Assembly (NCBI GenBank): GCA_045635825.1
Contig: JAZTWM010000006.1
Coordinates: 12,265-76,264, forward strand
Reading direction: 5' to 3'
Source: Candidatus Enterousia sp.
GTDB taxonomy: Bacteria > Pseudomonadota > Alphaproteobacteria > Rs-D84
DNA length: 64,000 nucleotides
Positions 6,905-64,000 of the stretch are shown piece after piece (the stretch's first letter is position 1; every line of letters begins with the position of its first letter). A program made the translations under genes and the position numbers. A model generated the notes under the pieces. That model had not been told where the DNA came from. It searched no databases and saw nothing but the letters and a program-made list of their open reading frames with translations.

Positions 6905-8197
6905 ATGGATTTGAAACCAACGAAACCTTTGTCGGGATTTATAGAACTAACACCTGTTCAGCAGCGCTGTTTTGATGAATGTGCCAGACGTATGCAAAAT
7001 GTATTGCGGGGGGCTGGTTTTTCGCACTTGGATTTGCCTGCGATTGAACGTGCCGAGGTTTTGACAGATAAAGACAATTGGGATGAAATTGAAACACAGA
7101 TGTTCTTGTTTCAAAAGGGTGATACCAAAATGGGGTTGCGATATGATGGTACGGTTGGTTTGTCGCGTTATGTTGCAGGTAATATGAATAATTTGGTATT
7201 CCCATTCCGCGCATATCAGTTTGCACGTAATTATCGTGGTGAACGTCCACAGCGTGGTCGCTATCGCGAGTTTTATCAGATGGATTTAGATATTATGGGG
7301 GTCGGTTCACTGTCGGTGAATTATGATGCAGAAATTGTTGCTACATTATCACGTGTGTATGAATCTGTGGCTGAGTTTATTGGTCCAACAGTTGTGCGTG
7401 TTGGTAATCGTAAGTTCTGGAATGCAATGTTTGATTATTTGAATCTGGACGACACGCAAAGACGCAGTGCATTTGTACTGATTGACAAGAAAGACAAATT
7501 AAAAGATTTCCAAGAAGGATTAATTGAAGAAGTTGGCGAAGTGGCGGCAACAGAAATCAATCGTGTATTTGCAGATGGGTATCAGTCTTTTGAAGGTAAG
7601 AGTGAGGCCTTGGATTCAGCAATTGCAGAAATTAATAACTTTATGGAATTGTTGCGTGCAATGGGTATTGCCAATGCCAGAATTGATTTGGGTATTATGC
7701 GTGGACATGCATATTACACAGGTGTTGTGTTTGAATTCTTTTTAGAAAACTTCCCAGAATTGGGGGCAATTGGTGGTGGTGGTCGTTATGAAGATTTGGC
7801 ATCAAAGTTTTCTAAGACCAAGATTATTGGCGTGGGTGCGGCGGTTGGTTTTTCTCGATTGATGGTTGCGTTGATGGACGATAATCGTATAGATCTTAGT
7901 TCTTTTGAAACACCGGTTGATGTTGCTGTGCTGTGTATGGGGGCGGATCAGGTCGTGTATTCTATGTCTGTGTTGGGGGCATTACGTGATATGGGTATTG
8001 CGTCCGTTGCGTATTTGGATGCAGATAAGAAATTCAAAAATCAAATTGAATATGCCGATAAAATTAATGCCCGTTTCAGTATGATTGTTGGCGAAAATGA
8101 AAGGGTTGGTCAAACTGTGGCCTTGAAGAATATGGTGTCTGGCGATCAGGTGAATGTGTCTGTTGCGGATGCAATTAAAATGGTAAAGGGTGAATAA
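6905..8197 (+). CDS. hisS: Histidyl-tRNA synthetase
   Basis: Class II motifs: FRAYQFARNYRGERPQRGRYREFYQMD (motif 2) and GGGRYEDL (motif 3); 430 aa. Confidence 0.85.
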   Translation: MDLKPTKPLSGFIELTPVQQRCFDECARRMQNVLRGAGFSHLDLPAIERAEVLTDKDNWDEIETQMFLFQKGDTKMGLRYDGTVGLSRYVAGNMNNLVFPFRAYQFARNYRGERPQRGRYREFYQMDLDIMGVGSLSVNYDAEIVATLSRVYESVAEFIGPTVVRVGNRKFWNAMFDYLNLDDTQRRSAFVLIDKKDKLKDFQEGLIEEVGEVAATEINRVFADGYQSFEGKSEALDSAIAEINNFMELLRAMGIANARIDLGIMRGHAYYTGVVFEFFLENFPELGAIGGGGRYEDLASKFSKTKIIGVGAAVGFSRLMVALMDDNRIDLSSFETPVDVAVLCMGADQVVYSMSVLGALRDMGIASVAYLDADKKFKNQIEYADKINARFSMIVGENERVGQTVALKNMVSGDQVNVSVADAIKMVKGE

Positions 8198-8199
8198 TA

Positions 8200-9264
8200 A
8201 TGATTGTTGAACAGAAATTGCGTGATATTCAAACACGCGCGGCAGAAATTGAATCACAGATGAATTCAGGTGATATTTCTGGCGATGAATTGACACGCCT
8301 GTCCAAGGAATATTCCAGATTAAATGAAATATTGCCTTTGGTTGCAGAATATTTTCAAACGGTGGCCGGCATCAATGATGCACGTGAAATGCAGGGCGAT
8401 CCAGAATTGCGTGATATTGCGAATGAGCAGTTGATTGAATTAAATCATAAATTGCCAGAAATTGAAAAGAATCTGCAAATTGCATTATTGCCACGTGATG
8501 ATGCAGATGATAATAGTGTGATTATGGAAATTCGTGCCGGTGTTGGTGGTGAAGAATCTGCATTGTTTGCGGGGGATTTATATAATCAGTACAAGTCATA
8601 CGCCTTGCGTCAGGGTTGGCGGGTTGAGGTTGTAGAAGAAAATGCAACATCACTGCGTGGCTACAAAGAAATTATATTCAAGATTGATGGGGCCGGTGCG
8701 TATGGTCGTATGAAATTTGAATCGGGGATTCATCGTGTTCAGCGCGTTCCAGAAACCGAAGCAGGTGGACGTATTCACACCAGTGCGGCATCTGTTGCCG
8801 TTATGCCTGAGGCCAAAGATATTGACGTTGTAATTGAAGACAAGGACATTCGTATTGATATTTTCCGTGCATCTGGTGCCGGTGGTCAACACGTTAATAA
8901 AACAGACAGTGCGATTCGTATTACACACTTTCCAACCGGTATTGTTGTGACATGTCAAAATGAACGCAGTCAGTTGCAAAATAAAATTGCGGCGATGTCT
9001 GTTTTGCGTTCCAAGTTGTATGAAAAACAGCGTACCGAACAAATGAATGCCAGCAATGCATCACGTAAATCCATGGTTGGTTCGGGTGATCGCAGTGAAA
9101 AGATTCGTACATATAATTTCCCAGAACAGCGTGTGACAGATCATCGTATTAAACTGACATTGTACAAGTTGGATGATATCTTGGCAGGTGGTGCGGGATT
9201 GGATGAAATGATTGATGCGTTGATTGCAGCGGATCAGTTGGAACAATTAACAAATATGGAGTAG
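8200..9264 (+). CDS. prfA: Peptide chain release factor 1
   Basis: GGQ motif (RASGAGGQHVNKTDSAIRITH) and PxT-type tripeptide (RVPETEAGGRIHTS); no frameshift site as in RF2. Confidence 0.8.
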   Translation: MIVEQKLRDIQTRAAEIESQMNSGDISGDELTRLSKEYSRLNEILPLVAEYFQTVAGINDAREMQGDPELRDIANEQLIELNHKLPEIEKNLQIALLPRDDADDNSVIMEIRAGVGGEESALFAGDLYNQYKSYALRQGWRVEVVEENATSLRGYKEIIFKIDGAGAYGRMKFESGIHRVQRVPETEAGGRIHTSAASVAVMPEAKDIDVVIEDKDIRIDIFRASGAGGQHVNKTDSAIRITHFPTGIVVTCQNERSQLQNKIAAMSVLRSKLYEKQRTEQMNASNASRKSMVGSGDRSEKIRTYNFPEQRVTDHRIKLTLYKLDDILAGGAGLDEMIDALIAADQLEQLTNME

Positions 9265-54628: not shown

Positions 54629-55243
54629 ATGGCAATTGAATTAAATGCAGAAATTCGCAATGTTGCTGGCAAGGGGGCCGCACGTAGCATCCGCAATAAC
54701 AAAAATGTTCCTGCGGTGATTTATGGCGAAAAGAAAGCCCCAATCGCAATCGAATTGAACGGTCGTGAATTCGAAATGTTGTTGAAAACCCCAGGTTTGC
54801 GGACAAAATTATTCCAAATCAAGACAGCAAACGGCACAGAAGACGCAATGTTGATGGATGTTCAATATCATCCTGTGTCTGATATGGCAATCCATGCGGA
54901 CTTTAAACGTATCGATGTCAAGAACCCTGTTAACGTTGTTGTTCCAGTTGAAGTTATCAATGCTGAAACTTCTAAGGGCTTGAAATTGGGTGGTACATTG
55001 AACTTTGCAGTTCGTAAAGTTGCTTTGCGTGGCTTGGTTGATGTTATCCCAGAAAAAATCATTATCGATTTGGCGAACTTGACAATCGGTGATGTGGTTC
55101 ACGGTACTGATTTGGTATTGCCAGAAGGTGTCGAATTGGGCTTGCATCAGGCTGAATTGGCATTCGCAATTATCGGTGGTAAGATGCCAATGGAAGAAGA
55201 TGAAAAAGCCAAAGCAGCAGCGATGGCAGCATCTAAGAAATAA
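54629..55243 (+). CDS. rplY: 50S ribosomal protein L25/general stress protein Ctc
   Basis: L..E.R...GKG..R..R..G.VPAVIYG N-terminal signature, ~200 aa two-domain form. Confidence 0.85.
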   Translation: MAIELNAEIRNVAGKGAARSIRNNKNVPAVIYGEKKAPIAIELNGREFEMLLKTPGLRTKLFQIKTANGTEDAMLMDVQYHPVSDMAIHADFKRIDVKNPVNVVVPVEVINAETSKGLKLGGTLNFAVRKVALRGLVDVIPEKIIIDLANLTIGDVVHGTDLVLPEGVELGLHQAELAFAIIGGKMPMEEDEKAKAAAMAASKK

Positions 55244-55245
55244 TA

Positions 55246-55275
55246 AAATCCCGCCAAACGGCGGGTTTTTCTTGA
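55246..55275 (+). terminator. Rho-independent terminator after rplY (aaatcccgccaaacggcgggttt + T-run)
   Basis: Perfect hairpin. Confidence 0.6.
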
Positions 55276-55329
55276 CAGGTTTGATTTTCATGGCTAAGGT
55301 TGTGCCCGAAAAAATCAAGGTTTTATATT

Positions 55330-55767
55330 ATGAATACAGAAAAAATAATTCGTTCAATCGTGGAAAGTTCGTATGCAGGCTGTAAGGTGGAAAGTTTGGA
55401 TATGGGGCTGACTTCGGAACTGGGGTTGGATTCATTGGATAAGATTGATATCTTGGTCAAGGTTGAACGTGCGTGTCGGGTTTCAATACCCGATGTTTTA
55501 GCGGAAAAAATTGAAACAGTTGGCGATTTGGTAAGTTGCGTTAATGGATTACGTGCAAAAGTGCCAGTTGATCGCATCTTGTCAAAAAGGCTATCTGGTG
55601 GACGTGTTGTGCGTTCTGCGTATCGTATTGATGATGGGCGTATTAAGTGTAATTTGACGGGTGGTTTTTGCCCAGAAATTAAGCCAACAATGGTGATTCG
55701 ACCAATGGAAGATATGTGTGCATTGGTAAAATGTGCCAGATATCAGCAGTACCAAAAGACGAAATAA
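55330..55767 (+). CDS. Acyl-carrier-protein-like domain (GLDSLD phosphopantetheine site) fused to a ~75-aa basic, 4-Cys C-terminal extension
   Basis: TSELGLDSLDKIDILVKVERACRVSIPD matches the ACP helix II region (DLGxDSLD); the tail is KCNLTGGFCPE..MCALVKCARY. Confidence 0.45.
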   Translation: MNTEKIIRSIVESSYAGCKVESLDMGLTSELGLDSLDKIDILVKVERACRVSIPDVLAEKIETVGDLVSCVNGLRAKVPVDRILSKRLSGGRVVRSAYRIDDGRIKCNLTGGFCPEIKPTMVIRPMEDMCALVKCARYQQYQKTK

Positions 55768-55768
55768 A

Positions 55769-55797
55769 AAATGGGCGATTTGCCCATTTTTTATGTT
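55769..55797. terminator. Bidirectional terminator (aaaatgggcgatttgcccatttt)
   Basis: Perfect hairpin between convergent genes. Confidence 0.6.
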
Positions 55798-55798
55798 T

Positions 55799-56878
55799 CT
55801 ATTTTTGTTCCCCAATATAAATGCCCATGTCAAAAGCAACATCCAGTAATGGTTCATCAGATGATACATATGCATTAGATGTCACCAGTTCTGGGATTTT
55901 TGGATCTGCCTGACATTCGCCAGATGACACAATGTCCGCCAGTGCAACGGTGCGAACCATGTCGTCTTCCAGTGCGGTCATTACGTATGTTTCGCCGTTT
56001 TCAATGGCATGTAATGCACAGTCGGCAAATCGGGTTGCCAATATACGATCGGTGGCGGTTGTGTCCCCTGCCCGTTGGGTGTGTTCTGGGAATGCGGTAC
56101 GATTTACAATGCCGGATGCGGTTAATTTGCGTGAAATCATATCTGCAGGTCGTCCGGAATGACCACGCAGGCTGATTCCTTCGGATACTATGATAATTCC
56201 ATAGTCATTGGGCGCATTTTTAATATGTTTAATCAGATTATCTACATCAAACTTAATTTCTGGAATTAAAATCGCAGATGCACCGGCGGCAATGCCGGCA
56301 TGTAATGCCAGTTGACCACAGTCACGACCCATGGCCTGAACCACGAACCAGCGGTGATGACTGCGTGCGGTTAACATTAACTGGTCACAAAATAGTGTCA
56401 GTTGTTCAACAGCAGAATCAAAACCAATTGTACGTGTTGTTAGGGGGATATCTAAATCAATTGTTTTTGGAATGCATATCAGTTGCAAGTCACGATATAT
56501 CTCACGATTTGCCCATGCCAAGGATATGCTGCCGTTGCCACCAATTAGAATCAATGCGTCCAGTGCCAAATCGTTTAATGATTTGCGTAACATACGGCGA
56601 AACTTTTCAACACGACCAGATTCAGCAGCGGTTTCAAAGTTCAGTGCATTTGCACGACCGTTGTGTAGAAAACTGCCAGCCAGACGTGCGTTCTCAATCG
56701 GTATCATCATGTCGTTTAATTCAATAACTGCAGGTGGTGTTACACACAGGCCATCTGTGCCATCTAGGATGCCAAAAACACGCCAGCCACGACGTGATGC
56801 ACCACGCATAATTCTGTGAATTGCGGTGTTCAGACCACTGCAATCACCGCCTGTTGTCATAATTCCAATCTTTTTCAT
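55799..56878 (-). CDS. pfkA: 6-phosphofructokinase (PfkA family). Start MKKIGIMTTGGDCSGLN.
   Basis: GIMTTGGDCSGLN, MGR.CG, catalytic GGDGS-like motif; ~360 aa. Confidence 0.8.
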   Translation of the reverse strand: MKKIGIMTTGGDCSGLNTAIHRIMRGASRRGWRVFGILDGTDGLCVTPPAVIELNDMMIPIENARLAGSFLHNGRANALNFETAAESGRVEKFRRMLRKSLNDLALDALILIGGNGSISLAWANREIYRDLQLICIPKTIDLDIPLTTRTIGFDSAVEQLTLFCDQLMLTARSHHRWFVVQAMGRDCGQLALHAGIAAGASAILIPEIKFDVDNLIKHIKNAPNDYGIIIVSEGISLRGHSGRPADMISRKLTASGIVNRTAFPEHTQRAGDTTATDRILATRFADCALHAIENGETYVMTALEDDMVRTVALADIVSSGECQADPKIPELVTSNAYVSSDEPLLDVAFDMGIYIGEQK

Positions 56879-56992
56879 AAAAATCCCCTGTTTTCTTGTG
56901 CTATTATACCATAAATAAGTTGACAAAGAAGTTTTATTTGTAATAATTTGTCTAAATTGAAATATAACTGCAAAATTACTAGGAGTTAAGGT

Positions 56993-58144
56993 ATGTCGAA
57001 ACAGAATAAAAACAACATGGGTACGACCAAGCGTTCCACTGATGATATGATAAATGATGCCATTGCACAGCAGAATGATTGGTTGGAAAATCGTCGTGAA
57101 TATACACGTGGTTTTTTAAAGTCTTTGAATTTGTTTGCACGCCCATCTAACAAGAAAAATGTTGAAAATGTTTCTGTGGAACAGACCAAGGTTGAACAGG
57201 CACGCCGTCGTCGTACAGGATTGGGTGCGTATTGGTTTCCGGTGTTATGTGCAGTATTGGTTATTATGATTGCGATTTGGGTTATGTTTATTCGCGGTAC
57301 AACCCAGCCACGTGTTGTTGTCGTGCCAGCGGTTCCAGAACCAGTCGTTCAACGTGTCAAGGCAATTACAGTGCCAGAGTTTGATATTGTACGTATAGAA
57401 AAAGATGGAGATATTGTTATCGCAGGTCGTTGGTTGCCACATCAAAATATTTCTATCTTGGTAAATGGCAAGGTTGTTGCGACAGAACGTACCGACTATC
57501 GTGGTGAATTTGTTTATTCGCCAACAAATCAGTGGAAGCCTGGTAACTATACAATTGCATTGTTGGGTACAGATCCAGAAGTAAAATCTTCGAACAAAGT
57601 GTTTGTGTATATTTCCGAAGAAGGTCCTAAAAAATCAATGTCTTTGCTGATGACAAAAGAAGGCAGTACATTATTGCAGGGGCCGGCATATTTGTCAGAT
57701 GGTGATTTGCATGTATCAAAAATTGATTATTTGGATACAGGTCGTGTTGTTGTGACAGGGGATGCGTTGCCACGTTTGCGTGTAACTTTGTCATTGGATG
57801 GAAAATATTTGGGATATGGTCGTGTATCTGACCACAAACATTTTGGTCTGGGGGCAGATGTTGGTGAATTGGCATCAGGCAAGGAATATGAATTGATTGT
57901 ACGTTTGCATGATGGTGATGGTCGTACAGTTGGTGCAATTAAGCATAATTTTGTGATGCCAGAAATGACAGGTGATGATGATACATATTATACTGTACGA
58001 CGTGGTGATTGTTTGTGGGTGATTGCACGTAATTTTATGCGTCGTGGTGTCTTGTTCAGCATTATCGCAGAACGTAATAACATTGAAAATCCAGATTTAA
58101 TTTATCCAAAACAGTTATTGCAGATTCCGGTTGCTGGAAAATAG
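56993..58144 (+). CDS. LysM-domain membrane protein (N-terminal cytoplasmic segment, one TM, periplasmic region, C-terminal LysM)
   Basis: C-terminal YYTVRRGDCLWVIARNF...IENPDLIYPKQLLQIP is a canonical LysM; TM YWFPVLCAVLVIMIAIWVMFI. Confidence 0.65.
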   Translation: MSKQNKNNMGTTKRSTDDMINDAIAQQNDWLENRREYTRGFLKSLNLFARPSNKKNVENVSVEQTKVEQARRRRTGLGAYWFPVLCAVLVIMIAIWVMFIRGTTQPRVVVVPAVPEPVVQRVKAITVPEFDIVRIEKDGDIVIAGRWLPHQNISILVNGKVVATERTDYRGEFVYSPTNQWKPGNYTIALLGTDPEVKSSNKVFVYISEEGPKKSMSLLMTKEGSTLLQGPAYLSDGDLHVSKIDYLDTGRVVVTGDALPRLRVTLSLDGKYLGYGRVSDHKHFGLGADVGELASGKEYELIVRLHDGDGRTVGAIKHNFVMPEMTGDDDTYYTVRRGDCLWVIARNFMRRGVLFSIIAERNNIENPDLIYPKQLLQIPVAGK

Positions 58145-58165
58145 TTTGTTCTAAAGGGGTTCAAT

Positions 58166-58600
58166 ATGCGTCCAAATGAAATCTTGATGATGTTGCGGTC
58201 GTTAGAGCAGAATCCAGAACAGTTAACCAAACGACACTTGAAAAAGATTTATGCCCTGTTGATTGCAATGGGGCATTATCCAGTATGCCCATGGTGCAAG
58301 GAATATATATACGATATAAACGACTTTACATGGGATCATATTGTGCCGAAAGCCGCGGGGGGGGCGGATTCTGTGGAAAATCTGCAACCAATGCACCGGC
58401 ATTGTAACAACGCAGCCAAGAACGATTGTGTGTATCAAATGGACTATCACTATGACATACAAACTGAATTGGAACATACGATTTTAGATGTGCGTGTGGC
58501 GGTATGCAAAAAATCTAGGACAGAACAAAACGAAAAGAAAAAGAAAGGAAAGTACAATAATAATAAACAACGGGTTAAAACCAGAAGCAGACAAAGATAA
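58166..58600 (+). CDS. Small HNH endonuclease-domain protein
   Basis: CPWC...(31)...DHIVPKAAGGADSVENLQPMHRHCNNAK: Cys pairs + DH...N...H = HNH nuclease core; K-rich tail. Confidence 0.7.
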   Translation: MRPNEILMMLRSLEQNPEQLTKRHLKKIYALLIAMGHYPVCPWCKEYIYDINDFTWDHIVPKAAGGADSVENLQPMHRHCNNAAKNDCVYQMDYHYDIQTELEHTILDVRVAVCKKSRTEQNEKKKKGKYNNNKQRVKTRSRQR

Positions 58601-58602
58601 AA

Positions 58603-59436
58603 ATGAAACACGATAAAATCAGTTTTGCGATTAAGGTGACCAATTGGTGCAATTTAAAGTGCGCGCACTGTTGCGAAAACAGTGGTCCACGTGTTATGCC
58701 CAACTTAATGCCTGTGGCCAAGGTTGAAAAGTATATTGGCGAATTTAAGGCAATGCCATTGTCAAAATGGAATCATTTAGTGTTTACGGGTGGTGAAGCA
58801 ATGGCACCCTATTTCCTGCATAATAACGAATATATGCCGCACTGCTTGTCTATGGCGGGAAATGCAGGTATGTATCCTTTTGTAAAAACAAATGGTATAT
58901 GGGGGGCAGACGAAGCCTTGCGTCATCGTATATTACAGGATTGTGCCAATGTGGCAGAAAAAAATGGAAAAATGACCTCGCTGGATATTTCTGTTGACGA
59001 GTTTCATAAAAACGTGCCTGCCGTTGCCCAGATTATTGTGGATATTGCCAGCAGTGACTATCTAGCACGTCGTGTGCGTGTTTCAATTTGTGGATTGGAT
59101 ACAATCAAATCACATGCACAGTTTAATTATTTAATCGCATATTTAAAATCACGTAACGTGCATGTGTTCCCATGCGAACACGACTTTATCGCGGCATTGG
59201 GTACGGTTGGAACACGTGTGTTGTTTGATTTCAGTACGCCTGTTGCCAGAATGGGACGTGCAAAAACCAAGGGTATGGGCGAGACCATCCCCGATGGTGC
59301 AACAGATAGTGTTTTGGGGAATTGTCTGCAGATAGATAATGATGATATTGCAACATTAAACTATTATCACAAGACACCGGTTAATGGGCGACCTGTTTTT
59401 GATGTGGCGCGTGAATTATTGTTAAAGGTTAGATAA
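58603..59436 (+). CDS. Radical SAM enzyme (CxxxCxxC: NWCNLKCAHCC; GGE SAM-binding motif FTGGEAM), no SPASM domain
   Basis: CNLKCAHC at residues 21-28 and TGGEA ~50 aa later; 277 aa; starts 3 nt after the HNH gene stop. Confidence 0.65.
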   Translation: MKHDKISFAIKVTNWCNLKCAHCCENSGPRVMPNLMPVAKVEKYIGEFKAMPLSKWNHLVFTGGEAMAPYFLHNNEYMPHCLSMAGNAGMYPFVKTNGIWGADEALRHRILQDCANVAEKNGKMTSLDISVDEFHKNVPAVAQIIVDIASSDYLARRVRVSICGLDTIKSHAQFNYLIAYLKSRNVHVFPCEHDFIAALGTVGTRVLFDFSTPVARMGRAKTKGMGETIPDGATDSVLGNCLQIDNDDIATLNYYHKTPVNGRPVFDVARELLLKVR

Positions 59437-59437
59437 A

Positions 59438-60250
59438 ATGCCAAAAAGAATACCAGATGATGAATTGACGCCAGAACAGTTGGCGAAACGTGAAAAACGC
59501 AGACGCTATTTGGCGGAAAATCGCGAAAGGATTAGTGCACAAAGACGTGATTACTATATGCGTAATGCGGAAAAAATACGTGAACGTTCACGCTTGAATA
59601 TGCGTGCCATGTCAACCGAAGAACGCAGAATCAAGGATAGGAAGTATCGTGAAAAGCATGGTGATGAAATTCGTGCCAGAAAAAAACAGCGTTATCTGGA
59701 AACGGCCGAGGTTTGCAAGGCACGTTCTAAGCGGTATTATGCAGGATTGACCCCAGAACAGAAAAAAGAACGTGTGGCCGCCAAACGTGGCAGTGCACAG
59801 GCATGGGTTGAAAGAAATATTGAACAGGTGCAGGCTGCACGACATCGTTATTATGAAGCCCATCGTGAGAAAAAATTGGCGTATGGTGCGAAGTATATTG
59901 AAGAACACATAGATGAATTGCATGCAAAATCGGCCCAGGTGCGTCGTGAAAAAACAGATGCACGTAAAATGTGTCCGGCGTTTCGCTTTACAGAATATCT
60001 GCGATTAAAAGAAAATGCACGTTTTGTTGCAGTGTATCGTCCGCAAACAAACCTGGCACACAAGGCGGCCAAGACATGTGTGGCGATTCAAAATGCAGAC
60101 TATTCATTGTGTCCAATTTGTTCTAATCCAAGAATTGCCGGGGATAAGATGGTGGCGACCTGCCCTATGCCGCATGTGTTCGAATTTGATGATGCCGTTC
60201 AGCAAATTCGCAATTTCGCAAAACAGATTGTCGCAGAAAATAAAAGATAA
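59438..60250 (+). CDS. Highly basic repeat protein (three ~30-aa R..RYY..N.EK/R repeats) with a C-terminal 4-Cys cluster (CPICSNP..ATCPMPH)
   Basis: Low-complexity R/K/E-rich repeats seen in translation; starts 2 nt after the radical SAM gene stop. Confidence 0.5.
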   Translation: MPKRIPDDELTPEQLAKREKRRRYLAENRERISAQRRDYYMRNAEKIRERSRLNMRAMSTEERRIKDRKYREKHGDEIRARKKQRYLETAEVCKARSKRYYAGLTPEQKKERVAAKRGSAQAWVERNIEQVQAARHRYYEAHREKKLAYGAKYIEEHIDELHAKSAQVRREKTDARKMCPAFRFTEYLRLKENARFVAVYRPQTNLAHKAAKTCVAIQNADYSLCPICSNPRIAGDKMVATCPMPHVFEFDDAVQQIRNFAKQIVAENKR

Positions 60251-60261
60251 TAGGATAAAAA

Positions 60262-61491
60262 ATGGATAAAAAGTTAGTGAAGTTCAATTTGGCGGATGAG
60301 ATTAAATCTGAGGCACCAGCGGGGTATGTAGAATCGTTGGAAAAATTAGTTAATGATATCGTGATTCCACGTGAGTTGGAAAAGATGTGCACCCAAGAAG
60401 GTCGTGTGTACAACCATAGTTTTGCAGATTATCAAAAATTGGCACGTGATATTTGGGGTGATACAATATCTGTCACGATAAAAAATGCCCCACATAGGGT
60501 TTTGTGTGGATCTGTGGGCAGTGCAAATCATCAAAATGCAGGTTATCATACATATTGGCGATTGATTGCCGATGATGGTACGCATTCTTATCAGGCACAA
60601 GAACAACATTGTGCGGCCGAATGTATATGTAAAGAGTTGCAAGTATTTGCAAATCAAAATAACGGCAGATTGCAATGGTTGGTTAAGAGTTTGTTGGCAA
60701 AACAAATCGGTTATCAGGCATTGCGTCAAAAAATGGGGTTACAGTCTTTGCATTTAGGGGCAGACGATGAAATAAAATCGATTTATAATATTAAGAAAGG
60801 GGCAACGATTTCTGGGGACGCAATGTTGGTTAATGATGTGTTCTTGAATACTTCGTGGGATAATCAGATGCGTCGAATTGCGGACAAGGTGTCGTATGGA
60901 TTGCGTGCGTTGGCACCCTTGTTGTGTGATGGTTCTGTAATTGATGGCGATAGCAGTAAAAATTGTATTTTTGTTAGTCATCCAAGCCTTAGATGTGGGG
61001 AAGATATTGTGGGTTCCTCTTATTATAAGCATAATGTGGATCATTGTTTGTATCGTAAGAATTGTTTGCTTGATCCGGGTGTGCATGAATTGGCAAGAAT
61101 CATAAATAATAAGATTGAGTTTGGTCGTAGATTGCGTGGTAGCGGTAATGTGGTCGAAACTGAACCTGTTATGCCGGGGGTAACGGGTGCAAAAAATCAT
61201 AGCGATGTTTATGATAATGTAGTGACTTCTACGCCAGAACCATGTGTTCGGTTTCCTTTCCTGCAAAATGGAAATAAAACTTTAATATGGGCGGGGGTTA
61301 CATGCGTTTCATTTGCTGGATTTTTGATGTGTGTTTCATTGGCAAAGCGGTGTGCCGAAGAATTGGTGGCCGAGAGAGAAAAATCACATAAAAAGGAAAT
61401 CGTGATAGATAGGCCAGATTCTGTACATAATCAGCGTGGTGATATTGAATGGCATAATGTATCAAATGCACGTAATGGACACAGCAGATAG
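60262..61491 (+). CDS. Hypothetical protein (409 aa), paralog A of a tandem pair; N-terminal ~75 aa almost identical to paralog B
   Basis: MDKKLVKFNLADEIKS..AGYVESLEKLVNDIVIPRELEKMC..; internal LLCDGSVIDGDSSKNCIFVSHPS motif. Confidence 0.55.
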   Translation: MDKKLVKFNLADEIKSEAPAGYVESLEKLVNDIVIPRELEKMCTQEGRVYNHSFADYQKLARDIWGDTISVTIKNAPHRVLCGSVGSANHQNAGYHTYWRLIADDGTHSYQAQEQHCAAECICKELQVFANQNNGRLQWLVKSLLAKQIGYQALRQKMGLQSLHLGADDEIKSIYNIKKGATISGDAMLVNDVFLNTSWDNQMRRIADKVSYGLRALAPLLCDGSVIDGDSSKNCIFVSHPSLRCGEDIVGSSYYKHNVDHCLYRKNCLLDPGVHELARIINNKIEFGRRLRGSGNVVETEPVMPGVTGAKNHSDVYDNVVTSTPEPCVRFPFLQNGNKTLIWAGVTCVSFAGFLMCVSLAKRCAEELVAEREKSHKKEIVIDRPDSVHNQRGDIEWHNVSNARNGHSR

Positions 61492-61522
61492 TGGCAGAAA
61501 ATCAAAGATAATAGGATAAAAA

Positions 61523-62800
61523 ATGGATAAAAAGTTAGTGAAGTTCAGTTTAGCGGACGGTATTAAATCTCTGGCACCAGCGGGGTATGTAGAATCGCTG
61601 GAAAACTTAGTTAATGATATCGTGATTCCACGTGAGTTAGAAAAGATGTGCGCCCAAGAAGGCCGTGTGTACAATTATAATTTTGCAGATTATCAAAAAA
61701 TGGCACGTGATATTTGGGGTGATACAAAGCTTGTTCGTCTTGTTGTGGGTACTGATGAGTATTATCTGTCGTCGATTGGTGGATTTGGTCATGAAGGGTT
61801 TGGTGGACGCTATACAGAAGAAGTGTTGAACGCAGATGTTGATGGTGTTGTTTATCAGGCCCAGGAACAGGATTTGCCATGGGGCTTTGATAAGTGGCCA
61901 GCAAGGTTAAAGAGATTTGCAAATAAAGATAATCCCAGATTAAGATGGTTGGTTAAGCATTTGTTGGTACAGCAACCAGGATATAAGGAATTGCGTAAAA
62001 AAATGGGGCTGAGTTATGTGTTTTTGGGGGCGATAGATGAATTCAAGGCAATTTATAATGTGCAAAATGGTGGTTATGTTGATTCAAGTGTGCAGAGTGT
62101 TTTTGCGTCAATGATGGATCAGGACCCTTATTACAGAAAATGCAGGCCAGATGTAATTGAAAAATTAGAAATCCAACTGCGTAAATTGGCATCGTTGTTG
62201 TGTGATGGTTCGGTAATTGAGGGCGATGCAAGCAAGAATTGGATTTATGTGGACCACCCTAGTTTCCATAGTCCCTTCTCTTTGATTGGTAGATCGTACA
62301 CTAAATATTCTGTGTATGGTGCGTTGTATGATTATAATACGTTTATGCACTATGGTTCTGATCCGGCTCGTGTGGCCCGTGAAGTAAATAATATTGTTGA
62401 TTATAACAGAGTAGCTAATGGAGTGATGGCGTCTGAGCCACCGGTGCGACCTGTGAAGGGTGTAAAAATTCACAGCGATGTGTACGATGTTGTTGAAGGA
62501 TTGAAAACGGAATCTTTGGTTAAGGATTTGCGTACCTTGGCATCAAAGTTGGATGGCGATGCGGTTTTGGGTGCCGATAAGACAACAAATCATGTTTTTG
62601 TAGATCATCCATCTTTTAAGTATGGCCCAGAATCTGTCTTGGGTGTGGCGAATTATAAATTACCAGCTTCATCCGTTGTTGGGGGTATGAACCGTATCGC
62701 ACGTGCCGGTGGTGTGGATGGGTTTGCGAATGAAATGAATAACAGAATTGCATTCTATAAAAAATTGAAACTGAATCAGACAAATACAAAACAAAGATAG
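61523..62800 (+). CDS. Hypothetical protein (425 aa), paralog B; contains two copies of a KN.I(F/Y)VDHPSF motif
   Basis: Near-identical 5' 240 bp to 60262 gene including 20 bp upstream; then diverged. Confidence 0.55.
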   Translation: MDKKLVKFSLADGIKSLAPAGYVESLENLVNDIVIPRELEKMCAQEGRVYNYNFADYQKMARDIWGDTKLVRLVVGTDEYYLSSIGGFGHEGFGGRYTEEVLNADVDGVVYQAQEQDLPWGFDKWPARLKRFANKDNPRLRWLVKHLLVQQPGYKELRKKMGLSYVFLGAIDEFKAIYNVQNGGYVDSSVQSVFASMMDQDPYYRKCRPDVIEKLEIQLRKLASLLCDGSVIEGDASKNWIYVDHPSFHSPFSLIGRSYTKYSVYGALYDYNTFMHYGSDPARVAREVNNIVDYNRVANGVMASEPPVRPVKGVKIHSDVYDVVEGLKTESLVKDLRTLASKLDGDAVLGADKTTNHVFVDHPSFKYGPESVLGVANYKLPASSVVGGMNRIARAGGVDGFANEMNNRIAFYKKLKLNQTNTKQR

Positions 62801-62859
62801 CAAAAAAACATACTGGACATGGGGTGGATTTTGGTGTATCATCTGCCCTGTCCTTATCT

Positions 62860-62933
62860 GCGGGCGTGGTATAATGGTAGCACGTCAGCTTCCCAAGCTG
62901 AAGACGAGGGTTCGATTCCCTTCGCCCGCACCA
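62860..62933 (+). tRNA. tRNA-Gly (anticodon CCC), CCA encoded
   Basis: GCGGGCG acceptor, anticodon loop TTCCCAA, AGGGTTCGATTCCCT T-arm. Confidence 0.85.
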
Positions 62934-63025
62934 TCCGCCTTCGCTTAGCGCTGCGGCGCGATTTGCGGCGCAACGGTTAGAGAAGTGGATGCTGCGCCAA
63001 AATGAAATGGAGGCGAGCTGATATT

Positions 63026-63265
63026 ATGTTCTATGTGTATATTTTGCAGTCGCAAATTTTTCCAGACAGATTTTATATTGGTTATACGGCGGATTTAAAG
63101 CGAAGGTTGTATGAACACAATAATGGATTGTCAGTACATACAAAGAAATATAAACCATGGTATTTGAAGAATTATGTCGCTTTTCAAGATGAGGAAAAGG
63201 CCAGACGTTTTGAACGGTATCTTAAAACAGGCAGTGGACGGCGTTTTGTAAAGCAACATTTGTGA
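63026..63265 (+). CDS. Small GIY-YIG nuclease-domain protein
   Basis: FYVYIL.....YIGYTADLKRRLYEHN: GIY-YIG catalytic motif; ~80 aa stand-alone form. Confidence 0.65.
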   Translation: MFYVYILQSQIFPDRFYIGYTADLKRRLYEHNNGLSVHTKKYKPWYLKNYVAFQDEEKARRFERYLKTGSGRRFVKQHL

Positions 63266-63294
63266 TGCTTCGTGTGGCACAGCCATAAAATTCA

Positions 63295-63320
63295 GCCGAC
63301 CCTTTGCGGTCGGTTTTTTA
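63295..63320 (+). terminator. Rho-independent terminator (ccgaccctttgcggtcgg + TTTTTT)
   Basis: Perfect 6-bp GC stem + T-run. Confidence 0.55.
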
Positions 63321-63399
63321 TTCTTAAAGTTGGTTGATATATAATTTTCTTCGTGGCATACTGTGGGTATGGAATCTTTTTTAGCATAGGGGATTTATT

Positions 63400-64000
63400 A
63401 TGAATATTATTTCTGTGGATACCAAACCGTTTGATAATCAAAAACCAGGAACTGGGGGGCTAAGAAAACAAACATCTGTTTTTATGGCCCCTAATTTTTT
63501 AGAAAACTTTATTCAGTCAGCCATAAATGCCAGAACTGTTGATGGTACGACTTTGCGGACGTGGGTCGTTGGTGGGGATGGCAGATATCCAGGGATGCAA
63601 TTCTTGCCAAAGATTATCAAGATATTGGTTGCAAATGGTGTGGAAAAGATTTTAGTCGTGGGACGTGATTTGGTTGCCCCAACACCTGCAATTTCACATA
63701 TTATACGCAAGTATAAGGCAGACGGTGGATTTATTTTGTCGGCATCGCATAATCCGGCCGGCCAAAATGGGGACTTTGGGGTCAAGGTGGAAATGGATAA
63801 TGGTGGTCAGGCAACGGAAAGTTTCACAAATGCATTGTATGAACAGACCAAGTCTATAACGCAATATAAAACATTGGACATCAGTGATTTAGAGGTTGGT
63901 GATTTGACGCAGGTTGAATATGTTGACCCGATTGCTGACTATGCGGATTTGTTGGAATCTATGTTTGATTTTGATGCGATACGTGCGTGGTTTGCCGATG
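63400..64000 (+). CDS. pgm: Phosphoglucomutase (alpha-D-phosphohexomutase family), N-terminal part, runs off window
   Basis: KPGTGGLRK and SASHNPAG (active-site phosphoserine loop TASHNP) motifs; no stop before the window end. Confidence 0.8.
   Translation, partial: MNIISVDTKPFDNQKPGTGGLRKQTSVFMAPNFLENFIQSAINARTVDGTTLRTWVVGGDGRYPGMQFLPKIIKILVANGVEKILVVGRDLVAPTPAISHIIRKYKADGGFILSASHNPAGQNGDFGVKVEMDNGGQATESFTNALYEQTKSITQYKTLDISDLEVGDLTQVEYVDPIADYADLLESMFDFDAIRAWFAD

Follow-up and report, generated by a model that had tools for sequence, protein, structure and literature searches.

To our knowledge, radical S-adenosylmethionine (SAM) epimerases have been described solely for peptide natural products that are secreted, and few types of them have been characterised structurally and mechanistically. 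One of these enzymes, EpeE (YydG), belongs to the epipeptide locus epeXEPAB/yydFGHIJ of Bacillus subtilis (PDB 8AI1-8AI6). Besides the radical SAM cluster, it has an extended twitch (T-SPASM) domain that holds a single auxiliary [4Fe-4S] cluster (PMC13012085). Its Cys223 returns a hydrogen atom to the Cα radical of the substrate, and the H-atom donors of radical SAM epimerases were found by way of a single critical cysteine, Cys223 in EpeE and Cys372 in PoyD (PMC8326336). The proteusin epimerases of the PoyD/OspD type, for their part, have no cluster other than a single radical SAM cluster, and a sole catalytic cysteine is strictly conserved in them (PMC8326336). Here we describe a distant relative of EpeE in a five-gene locus of Candidatus Enterousia sp. 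(assembly GCA_045635825.1, contig JAZTWM010000006.1), contained in a stretch of 64,000 nucleotides that is referred to as the window. Coordinates are positions in the window; L-numbers designate related loci and P-numbers homologous proteins. Bacteria of Candidatus Enterousia, order Rs-D84, have genomes of approximately 0.75-1.0 Mb, and a life that depends on a partner organism has been inferred for them (PMC12306168).

The locus (Table 1) consists of five open reading frames (ORFs), all on the + strand and separated by spacers of 2, 1, 11 and 31 nt, in that order: an HNH nuclease, the radical SAM enzyme (rSAM), a basic protein designated the partner, and two paralogs, pA and pB. An earlier note, made from the sequence alone, had named these genes and their domains, as well as the adjacent tRNA-Gly and GIY-YIG genes, and its calls agree with the six-frame ORF list, Pfam and ARAGORN/Rfam. 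Its view of the five genes as one module does not hold, since the full set is confined to the window's own species (L083, GCA_045656105.1, repeats the complete order) and the parts vary independently elsewhere. Instead, the locus is probably made up of three layers, placed in a fixed slot of the chromosome that is bounded by the LysM gene and tRNA-Gly(CCC). The first layer would be a lineage-specific rSAM, to which roughly four in ten species add a dedicated partner encoded directly downstream; the second, a small HNH nuclease with intact catalytic residues, vertically inherited at the site and lost in most species; and the third, an orphan paralog cassette, tandem-duplicated in the window species, mosaic, fast-evolving and recently exchanged between species. 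Within the first layer, the best-supported reading is that of a conserved two-gene unit, composed of an EpeE-like rSAM and a Cys-rich partner. Taken together, the three layers and the chemistry and substrate proposed below form the best explanation of the whole, which we put forward tentatively, as somewhat short of probable.

The rSAM homologs fall into 113 clusters at 90% identity, all of approximately 280 aa, and all named members originate from metagenome-assembled genomes of uncultured Alphaproteobacteria from gut or rumen. Examination of 62 aligned homologs shows that the CxxxCxxC cysteines (C16, C20 and C23), GGE (G63-G64-E65), KTN, W100, S130, D132, GRA and C241 are invariant, and H135 of the DEFH motif nearly so. 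The ratio of nonsynonymous to synonymous divergence (dN/dS) is 0.06-0.14, indicating strong purifying selection, in genomes smaller than 1 Mb. Among the PDB entries, the only significant match to the family profile is EpeE (E = 2e-12 over approximately 190 residues; the next match is at 2e-3), and the overall fold is also closest to that of EpeE. The NCBIfam equivalog of YydG (TIGR04078) matches residues 8-141 only, with 34.6 bits (E = 1.4e-8) against a cutoff of 300 bits, and all other NCBIfam matches of the enzyme are likewise far below their cutoffs. The 62 homologs contain no set of cysteines for an auxiliary [4Fe-4S] cluster of the twitch/T-SPASM type. On account of this low score and the missing cysteines, rSAM is considered a relative of EpeE rather than a member of the EpeE family.

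In the same alignment, C241 is the only invariant cysteine besides the CxxxCxxC triad. By analogy, this single strictly conserved extra cysteine would parallel the reasoning that led to Cys372 of PoyD and Cys223 of EpeE, and the lack of an auxiliary cluster makes a redox-neutral chemistry the more likely option. In the proposed reaction, the 5'-deoxyadenosyl radical derived from SAM would abstract a hydrogen atom from a protein substrate, for example in a Cα epimerisation in which C241 gives the hydrogen back; the most likely substrate would be the Cys-rich C-terminal module of the partner. This combination of chemistry and substrate, drawn from homology and the cofactor inventory, is possible, with the balance leaning against it. 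One related locus (L043) has two tandem rSAM genes, of which the second (L043:6840-7655) has a Val residue in position 241 while keeping the CxxxCxxC, GGE and DxxH motifs, a natural variant that could reveal the role of C241.

The partner is built of two parts. Residues 1-175 form an array of basic helices of approximately 14 residues each (isoelectric point 10.2; AlphaFold2 (AF2) predicted local distance difference test score, pLDDT, of about 90), and the alignment shows that the number of repeats differs between species through indels of the size of a repeat unit; the length of the protein ranges from 189 to 539 aa across the loci. Residues 176-270 make up the Cys4 module, with C179, C214, C225 and C242, three of which are invariant and the fourth nearly so in 21 modules that share 19-71% identity. 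Several of these cysteines occur in a C-P context, and the hydrophobic periodicity is kept throughout the 21 modules. The dN/dS of the Cys4 module is 0.125-0.19 (purifying), compared to 0.10-0.50 in the looser repeat region. AF2 models the module as mostly helical at a pLDDT of 42-57 (predicted template modelling score of the partner, 0.30), and Foldseek found no match to the partner fold in the PDB. Neither the partner nor nine divergent partners have a Pfam match or a retained PHROGs match: the partner itself gave two sub-threshold PHROGs matches, later rejected, and a link to a phage "HNH endonuclease" repeat (phrog_7091, E = 1.3e-3 only) was dropped because the nine divergent partners match nothing in PHROGs or Pfam. 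A pattern scan for the Cys4 module in metagenomes was uninformative, as the diverse alignment was too variable and the closer one returned a single locus. The basic helical repeats may anchor the partner to another macromolecule, possibly nucleic acid.

The distribution of the genes was surveyed by means of gene contexts, tblastn and hidden Markov models in all fetched loci, and a profile scan in which each species was represented by a single genome yielded 66 rSAM loci, many of them labelled Candidatus Enterousia. A LysM gene lies upstream of rSAM in 36 of the 66; in the other 30, rSAM occupies another chromosomal context, near rpsL-rpsG-fusA, YceG, tRNA-Pro and NUDIX. Where enough sequence was available (62 species loci), a Cys4 module is encoded directly downstream of rSAM in 26 cases, of which 18 share the LysM context and 8 the other context, with spacers of 1-9 nt or overlapping genes; three further loci have a Cys4 partner at a slightly greater distance. 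That the pair is kept in two chromosomal contexts is the best evidence for its functional coupling. A single protein of L010 carries two Cys4 modules, and L053, L063 and L081 each have two partner genes in tandem. Precursor genes are often duplicated. The slot itself may contain rSAM alone, rSAM and partner (L001, L016), HNH and rSAM (L006), rSAM, partner and one paralog (L011), HNH, rSAM, partner and paralog (L013), or HNH, partner and paralog with rSAM cleanly missing (L014/L015). None of the 66 species loci contains the paralogs.

The HNH nuclease scores 41.4 bits with PF01844, above the cutoff of 21.4 bits; its zinc site reads CxxC...C and its catalytic core DH...N...H...N, and the C-terminal tail is basic. 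No substitution occurs at C41, C44, D57, H58, N72, H77, C80 or N81 among 12 homologs (28-86% identity); its N-terminal "RHLKKLYALLIA" domain gave no match. The gene is located between LysM and rSAM in 8 of the 66 species loci (including L037) and is also found in L013, L014 and L083, whereas L038 carries a pair of HNH genes immediately after rSAM, and L076 a single one approximately 3.5 kb downstream. Its nucleotide identity to L013 is 63-77%, a divergence that matches the flanks and thus denotes an old, vertically inherited gene with many losses. The only tie seen between HNH and rSAM is their adjacency in a minority of species; for the nuclease and the paralogs alike, a functional tie to the enzyme would be a matter of inference.

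The two paralogs are 48% identical over 342 aa. Paralog pA shares its N-terminal 67 aa with pB, continues into an A-type variable region and ends with a transmembrane segment (aa 340-358; Kyte-Doolittle hydropathy of up to 1.94 at residue 340), instead of which pB repeats an internal "L..LA..L.GD..(V/I)..VDHPSF" module (residues 214-292 and 336-416). The family comprises 17 clusters among 5.8e9 proteins, and an exhaustive profile search of 1.84e9 representatives returned only 3 of its members and two marginal matches. Of the marginal matches, P0152 has one module in common with the paralogs, and P0153, with an RCC1-blade-like motif, is probably due to chance. The 248-nt direct repeat (Table 1) denotes a tandem duplication whose unit begins within the final codons of partner, a copy of which (GCAGAAAATcAAAGATAA) persists ahead of pB. 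The paralog alignment is mosaic: segments of A-type and B-type alternate within several homologs, and A-type segments recur in P0125 and P0127-P0130.

In a comparison of the window with L011 and L013, the synonymous divergence (dS) of LysM and rSAM is 1.0-1.7 as opposed to 0.14-0.30 for pB. At the nucleotide level the flanks are 72-80% identical, as against 91-98% in a stretch that starts near position 60140 and takes in the 5' end and the 3' half of pB. These values denote a recent exchange of the cassette between species, for which recombination between the partner 3' end and the tRNA is the apparent route. In the same comparison, pB has a dN/dS of 0.72-0.84; the large proteins do evolve fast, in line with the word "diversifying" in the earlier note, and they are mosaic and exchanged. 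The long-term value for pA versus pB (0.33-0.40) is that of real coding genes. In L014 and L015, two independent assemblies of one lineage, rSAM is deleted and the single paralog contains an in-frame stop (YQA*EQD), which hints at joint decay in this single lineage. The position from which rSAM is absent lies between HNH and partner at 6838-6859 of L014 and the stop-bearing paralog at 7680-8921, with the same arrangement in L015.

Evidence for horizontal exchange holds for the paralog cassette only, and the locus is not a mobile island in the usual sense. No integrase domain was found among the genes at 55000-64000, and neither a repeat of the tRNA 3' end (62860-62933) nor an att-like repeat flanks the slot, in agreement with the earlier note, which had also proposed an accessory locus at tRNA-Gly. 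As to the latter, the slot content is indeed variable, but the GIY-YIG gene and the other flanks belong to the conserved chromosomal synteny. The GC content of the five genes is 0.40-0.44, and that of their third codon positions (GC3) 0.34-0.45, both matching the backbone (0.434 +/- 0.018 and 0.373 +/- 0.040, respectively), so that the compositional deviation for which the earlier note had suggested a check is not seen. No relatives occur on IMG/VR viral contigs or in GenBank phages, and a search of PLSDB plasmids, with pB only, returned nothing. No system model of PADLOC-DB v2 was matched by the five proteins; within PADLOC, rSAM gave only partial, N-terminal matches to the viperin model (E = 2.6e-6), and HNH, partner, pA and pB gave none. 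In a full-length test against the viperin family (PDLC02903, NF038283), rSAM failed, with 22 bits in NCBIfam versus a cutoff of 180 bits. The partner, pA and pB have no match in Pfam or NCBIfam, nor do pA and pB have one in PHROGs. The statement that the locus matches no described restriction, ribosomally synthesised and post-translationally modified peptide (RiPP), viperin-like or tRNA-modification system is thus upheld.

Several observations weigh against the Cys-rich module as the substrate of an epimerase-like rSAM. About 55% of the species have no partner within 6 kb of rSAM, and ordinary genes (GDH, a TolC-like protein, NUDIX) lie downstream of the enzyme in such loci; the partner would then not be the only substrate, or else it would be encoded elsewhere. 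L014/L015 retain the partner after the deletion of rSAM, though the paralog there has a stop codon. No protease or exporter of the epipeptide type is present in the window or in more than 80 related loci. As to a possible equivalence of C241 and Cys223 of EpeE, which faces SAM across the substrate, neither a C-terminal rSAM fragment nor a 19-sequence profile of the C-terminal third matches EpeE. Finally, the hydrophobic periodicity of the Cys4 module at 20-30% identity looks like that of a small folded metal-binding domain and not of a peptide core. In the main rival explanation, the partner would serve as an adaptor that binds metal, or as an auxiliary subunit in trans, with the substrate located elsewhere: an Fe-S or Zn protein would supply the auxiliary cluster or electron path that rSAM has lost, or else target the enzyme, the repeats would bind RNA or DNA, and rSAM would modify nucleic acid or a third protein. 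The periodicity, the four conserved cysteines and their C-P contexts would suit such a role, as would the high isoelectric point of the repeat region, the lack of auxiliary-cluster cysteines in rSAM, whereas EpeE has the cluster (PMC13012085), and the optional HNH neighbour, which is also a basic, Cys-containing nucleic-acid enzyme. We nevertheless consider this explanation fairly unlikely. The module is predicted, at low confidence, to be mostly helical, unlike the twitch domain, which is based on a beta-hairpin; its absence beside the enzyme in over half of the species would be odd for an obligate subunit, and its doubling, both in one polypeptide and as tandem genes, would be unusual for a 1:1 cofactor subunit. 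In addition, EpeE, a peptide enzyme, is the only significant match by sequence.

The earlier note had suggested that the five genes might form one accessory system for anti-phage defence or DNA/RNA modification beside the tRNA gene. In favour of such a system are the tight, co-directional packing of the genes, the intact HNH active site, the weak partial viperin matches, the variable content of the slot, the mosaic, fast-evolving and exchanged paralogs, and the coincidence of rSAM deletion and paralog stop in L014/L015. It is improbable in view of the confinement of the five-gene set to the window species, its parts occurring in nearly every other combination elsewhere, and of the paralogs to a handful of closely related species. 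The divergence of rSAM and HNH along with their flanks bespeaks vertical inheritance; the backbone-like composition, the absence of integrase, att repeat and phage, viral or plasmid relatives (plasmids with pB only) and the failed PADLOC and viperin tests argue in the same direction, and the nearest relative of rSAM modifies peptides, not nucleic acid. The earlier note had itself named unlinked homologs and a conserved chromosomal context as signs against such a module, and both are seen in part. A different association, in which rSAM would work with the LysM envelope protein, for instance by modifying LysM or a wall-associated peptide, with the downstream genes being incidental, seems very improbable. 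In its favour, 21 of the 36 LysM-context loci have a LysM stop codon that touches or overlaps the start of rSAM. In the window, the LysM gene stops 21 nt before the HNH start, within the spacer range of the other genes, the best promoter-like site (56920-56947) is upstream of LysM, and no convincing terminator was detected in the terminator scan between LysM and HNH, or between LysM and rSAM; a terminator-like hairpin occurs at 63294-63315, past the GIY-YIG gene. The counts of such promoter and terminator signals do not exceed those in shuffled sequence, and the scans are therefore taken as weak support only. The LysM gene is probably co-transcribed with the downstream genes, and its description in the earlier note as a separate unit is not demonstrable. 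On the other hand, 30 of the 66 loci lack a nearby LysM gene, and some of these still have the Cys4 partner; HNH or a gene for a 573-aa protein can intervene between LysM and rSAM, and the PFK-LysM block reflects general synteny of the clade.

Table 1. Features of the rSAM locus and its neighbours in the window.
Feature	Position	Strand	Evidence and remarks
LysM-domain membrane protein	56993..58144	+	PF01476, E = 4.7e-10; upstream neighbour, context only, outside core module
HNH nuclease, 144 aa	58166..58600	+	PF01844, E = 1.6e-10; optional slot resident
Radical SAM enzyme (rSAM), 277 aa, CNLKCAHC	58603..59436	+	PF04055, E = 3.3e-7; constant element of locus
Partner (basic protein, 270 aa), whole gene	59438..60250	+	
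Partner N-terminal part, aa 1-175, RxxxYY repeats	59438..59962	+	
Partner C-terminal module (conserved mark of rSAM partners), ~95 aa, four conserved Cys	59963..60250	+	
Left copy of 248-nt direct repeat	60219..60466	+	92% identical to 61480-61727
Paralog A (pA), 409 aa	60262..61491	+	Orphan, C-terminal transmembrane segment
Paralog B (pB), 425 aa	61523..62800	+	Orphan, internally duplicated module, exchanged cassette
tRNA-Gly(CCC)	62860..62933	+	ARAGORN and Rfam; right-hand boundary of variable slot
Small GIY-YIG protein, 87 aa	63002..63265	+	PF01541, E = 1.6e-13; chromosomal neighbour outside module

The flanks follow a conserved order, namely PFK (on the minus strand), LysM, the slot, tRNA-Gly(CCC), often GIY-YIG, and rpsP-rimM-trmD-rplS. 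The tRNA gene occupies the equivalent position in L001, L004, L006, L011, L013 and L014. Orthologs of the GIY-YIG gene follow it in L004, L020 and L083, the last of which continues with phosphoglucomutase and the rpsP operon; the GIY-YIG protein is a conserved syntenic gene and not a marker of a mobile element here. The rpsP-rimM-trmD-rplS operon of the relatives is split by two to seven small ORFs of 64-112 aa with no Pfam match (L013:12089-14504, L014:11725-14302, L006:11759-13293 and L083:10188-10949, the region 3' of the window end), which is unusual for a normally compact operon, and more so in reduced genomes. Very large proteins with Flg_new repeats (e.g., 3099 aa) are encoded near the slot in some relatives (L004:1-421, L010:7558-9696) and may be surface proteins of these reduced-genome bacteria. 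A protein of approximately 573 aa with an HExxH...EEHKAD motif adjoins the rSAM slot, upstream or downstream of the enzyme, in 13 species loci (L017:4164-5885, L075:6856-8586 and 11 others); it was considered as a protease of the cluster and, having no Pfam match and being absent from the window, is treated as a chromosomal neighbour. Further upstream, the window codes for a 155-aa protein (55300-55767, + strand) whose N-terminal part is an acyl-carrier-like PP-binding domain (PF00550, E = 3.3e-6) and whose C-terminal extension is rich in Cys; in L001, L011, L013 and L014, a counterpart of 130-177 aa is conserved next to PFK, on its upstream side. The GC skew is positive nearly throughout the window (1-64000), and the almost monotonic climb of the cumulative skew over the 64 kb places the window within one replichore, without origin or terminus.

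The rSAM family would broaden the chemistry and the substrate range of the epimerase branch. A stronger version, which we regard as unlikely, is that of a new epimerase-like branch without an auxiliary cluster, performing a radical modification (D-residues or a Cys-linked crosslink) on a large basic intracellular protein and kept across an order of reduced-genome gut symbionts; if true, RiPP chemistry would have a counterpart that acts on proteins and has a role in the cell. With its small size (277 aa), its confident model and its lack of the auxiliary cluster found in its relative EpeE, rSAM offers, together with its partner, a tractable two-gene system for probing the purpose of that cluster. 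Recent gene flow among uncultured reduced-genome gut bacteria, with no recognisable vehicle, is cleanly exemplified by the orphan cassette: its copies are near-identical in species between which the synonymous sites of the flanking genes have reached saturation. The locus has no bearing on a long-standing open question.

The HNH nuclease, whose beta-beta-alpha-metal core is intact, resembles the free-standing phage-type HNH endonucleases (PF01844; phrog_338, E = 5.7e-14, and related families), but it is chromosomal and vertically inherited at one site rather than in a phage, intron or terminase context. Viperin-specific C-terminal features were not detected in rSAM. The SPASM/twitch maturases (SuiB, SkfB, PqqE, ChlB) are set apart by a SPASM/twitch Cys motif and a RiPP recognition element (RRE), both of which rSAM lacks: it has no conserved C-terminal Cys motif corresponding to the seven cysteines with which SPASM binds two auxiliary clusters, and the NCBIfam matches to SPASM families are N-terminal only, at 13-21 bits. 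With PoyD and OspD, rSAM would share the inventory of a single radical SAM cluster and one conserved catalytic cysteine; there is no significant match in sequence or fold, rSAM has no C-terminal RRE domain, and the substrates of these epimerases, nitrile-hydratase-like leader peptides, are absent at this locus.

EpeE is the closest known system. The two enzymes have in common the CNxxCxHCC, FTGGE, NGxWG and (I/L)SxDE(F/Y)H motifs, and both possess a critical or invariant cysteine outside the cluster (for EpeE, PMC8326336). Their overall identity is 18%, with no detectable sequence similarity in the C-terminal third, and rSAM has no cysteines for an auxiliary cluster such as that in the T-SPASM domain of EpeE (PMC13012085). 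The epe locus codes for a 49-aa precursor peptide, a membrane protease and an ABC exporter, none of which is found in the window or in the 80+ related loci; the intergenic spacers are 1-31 nt. In place of the 49-aa precursor, the candidate substrate would be a basic protein of 189-539 aa, and the host is a Gram-negative, reduced-genome gut bacterium, as opposed to a Firmicute. The enzyme-partner pair is a new variant among the radical SAM enzymes that modify proteins and peptides.

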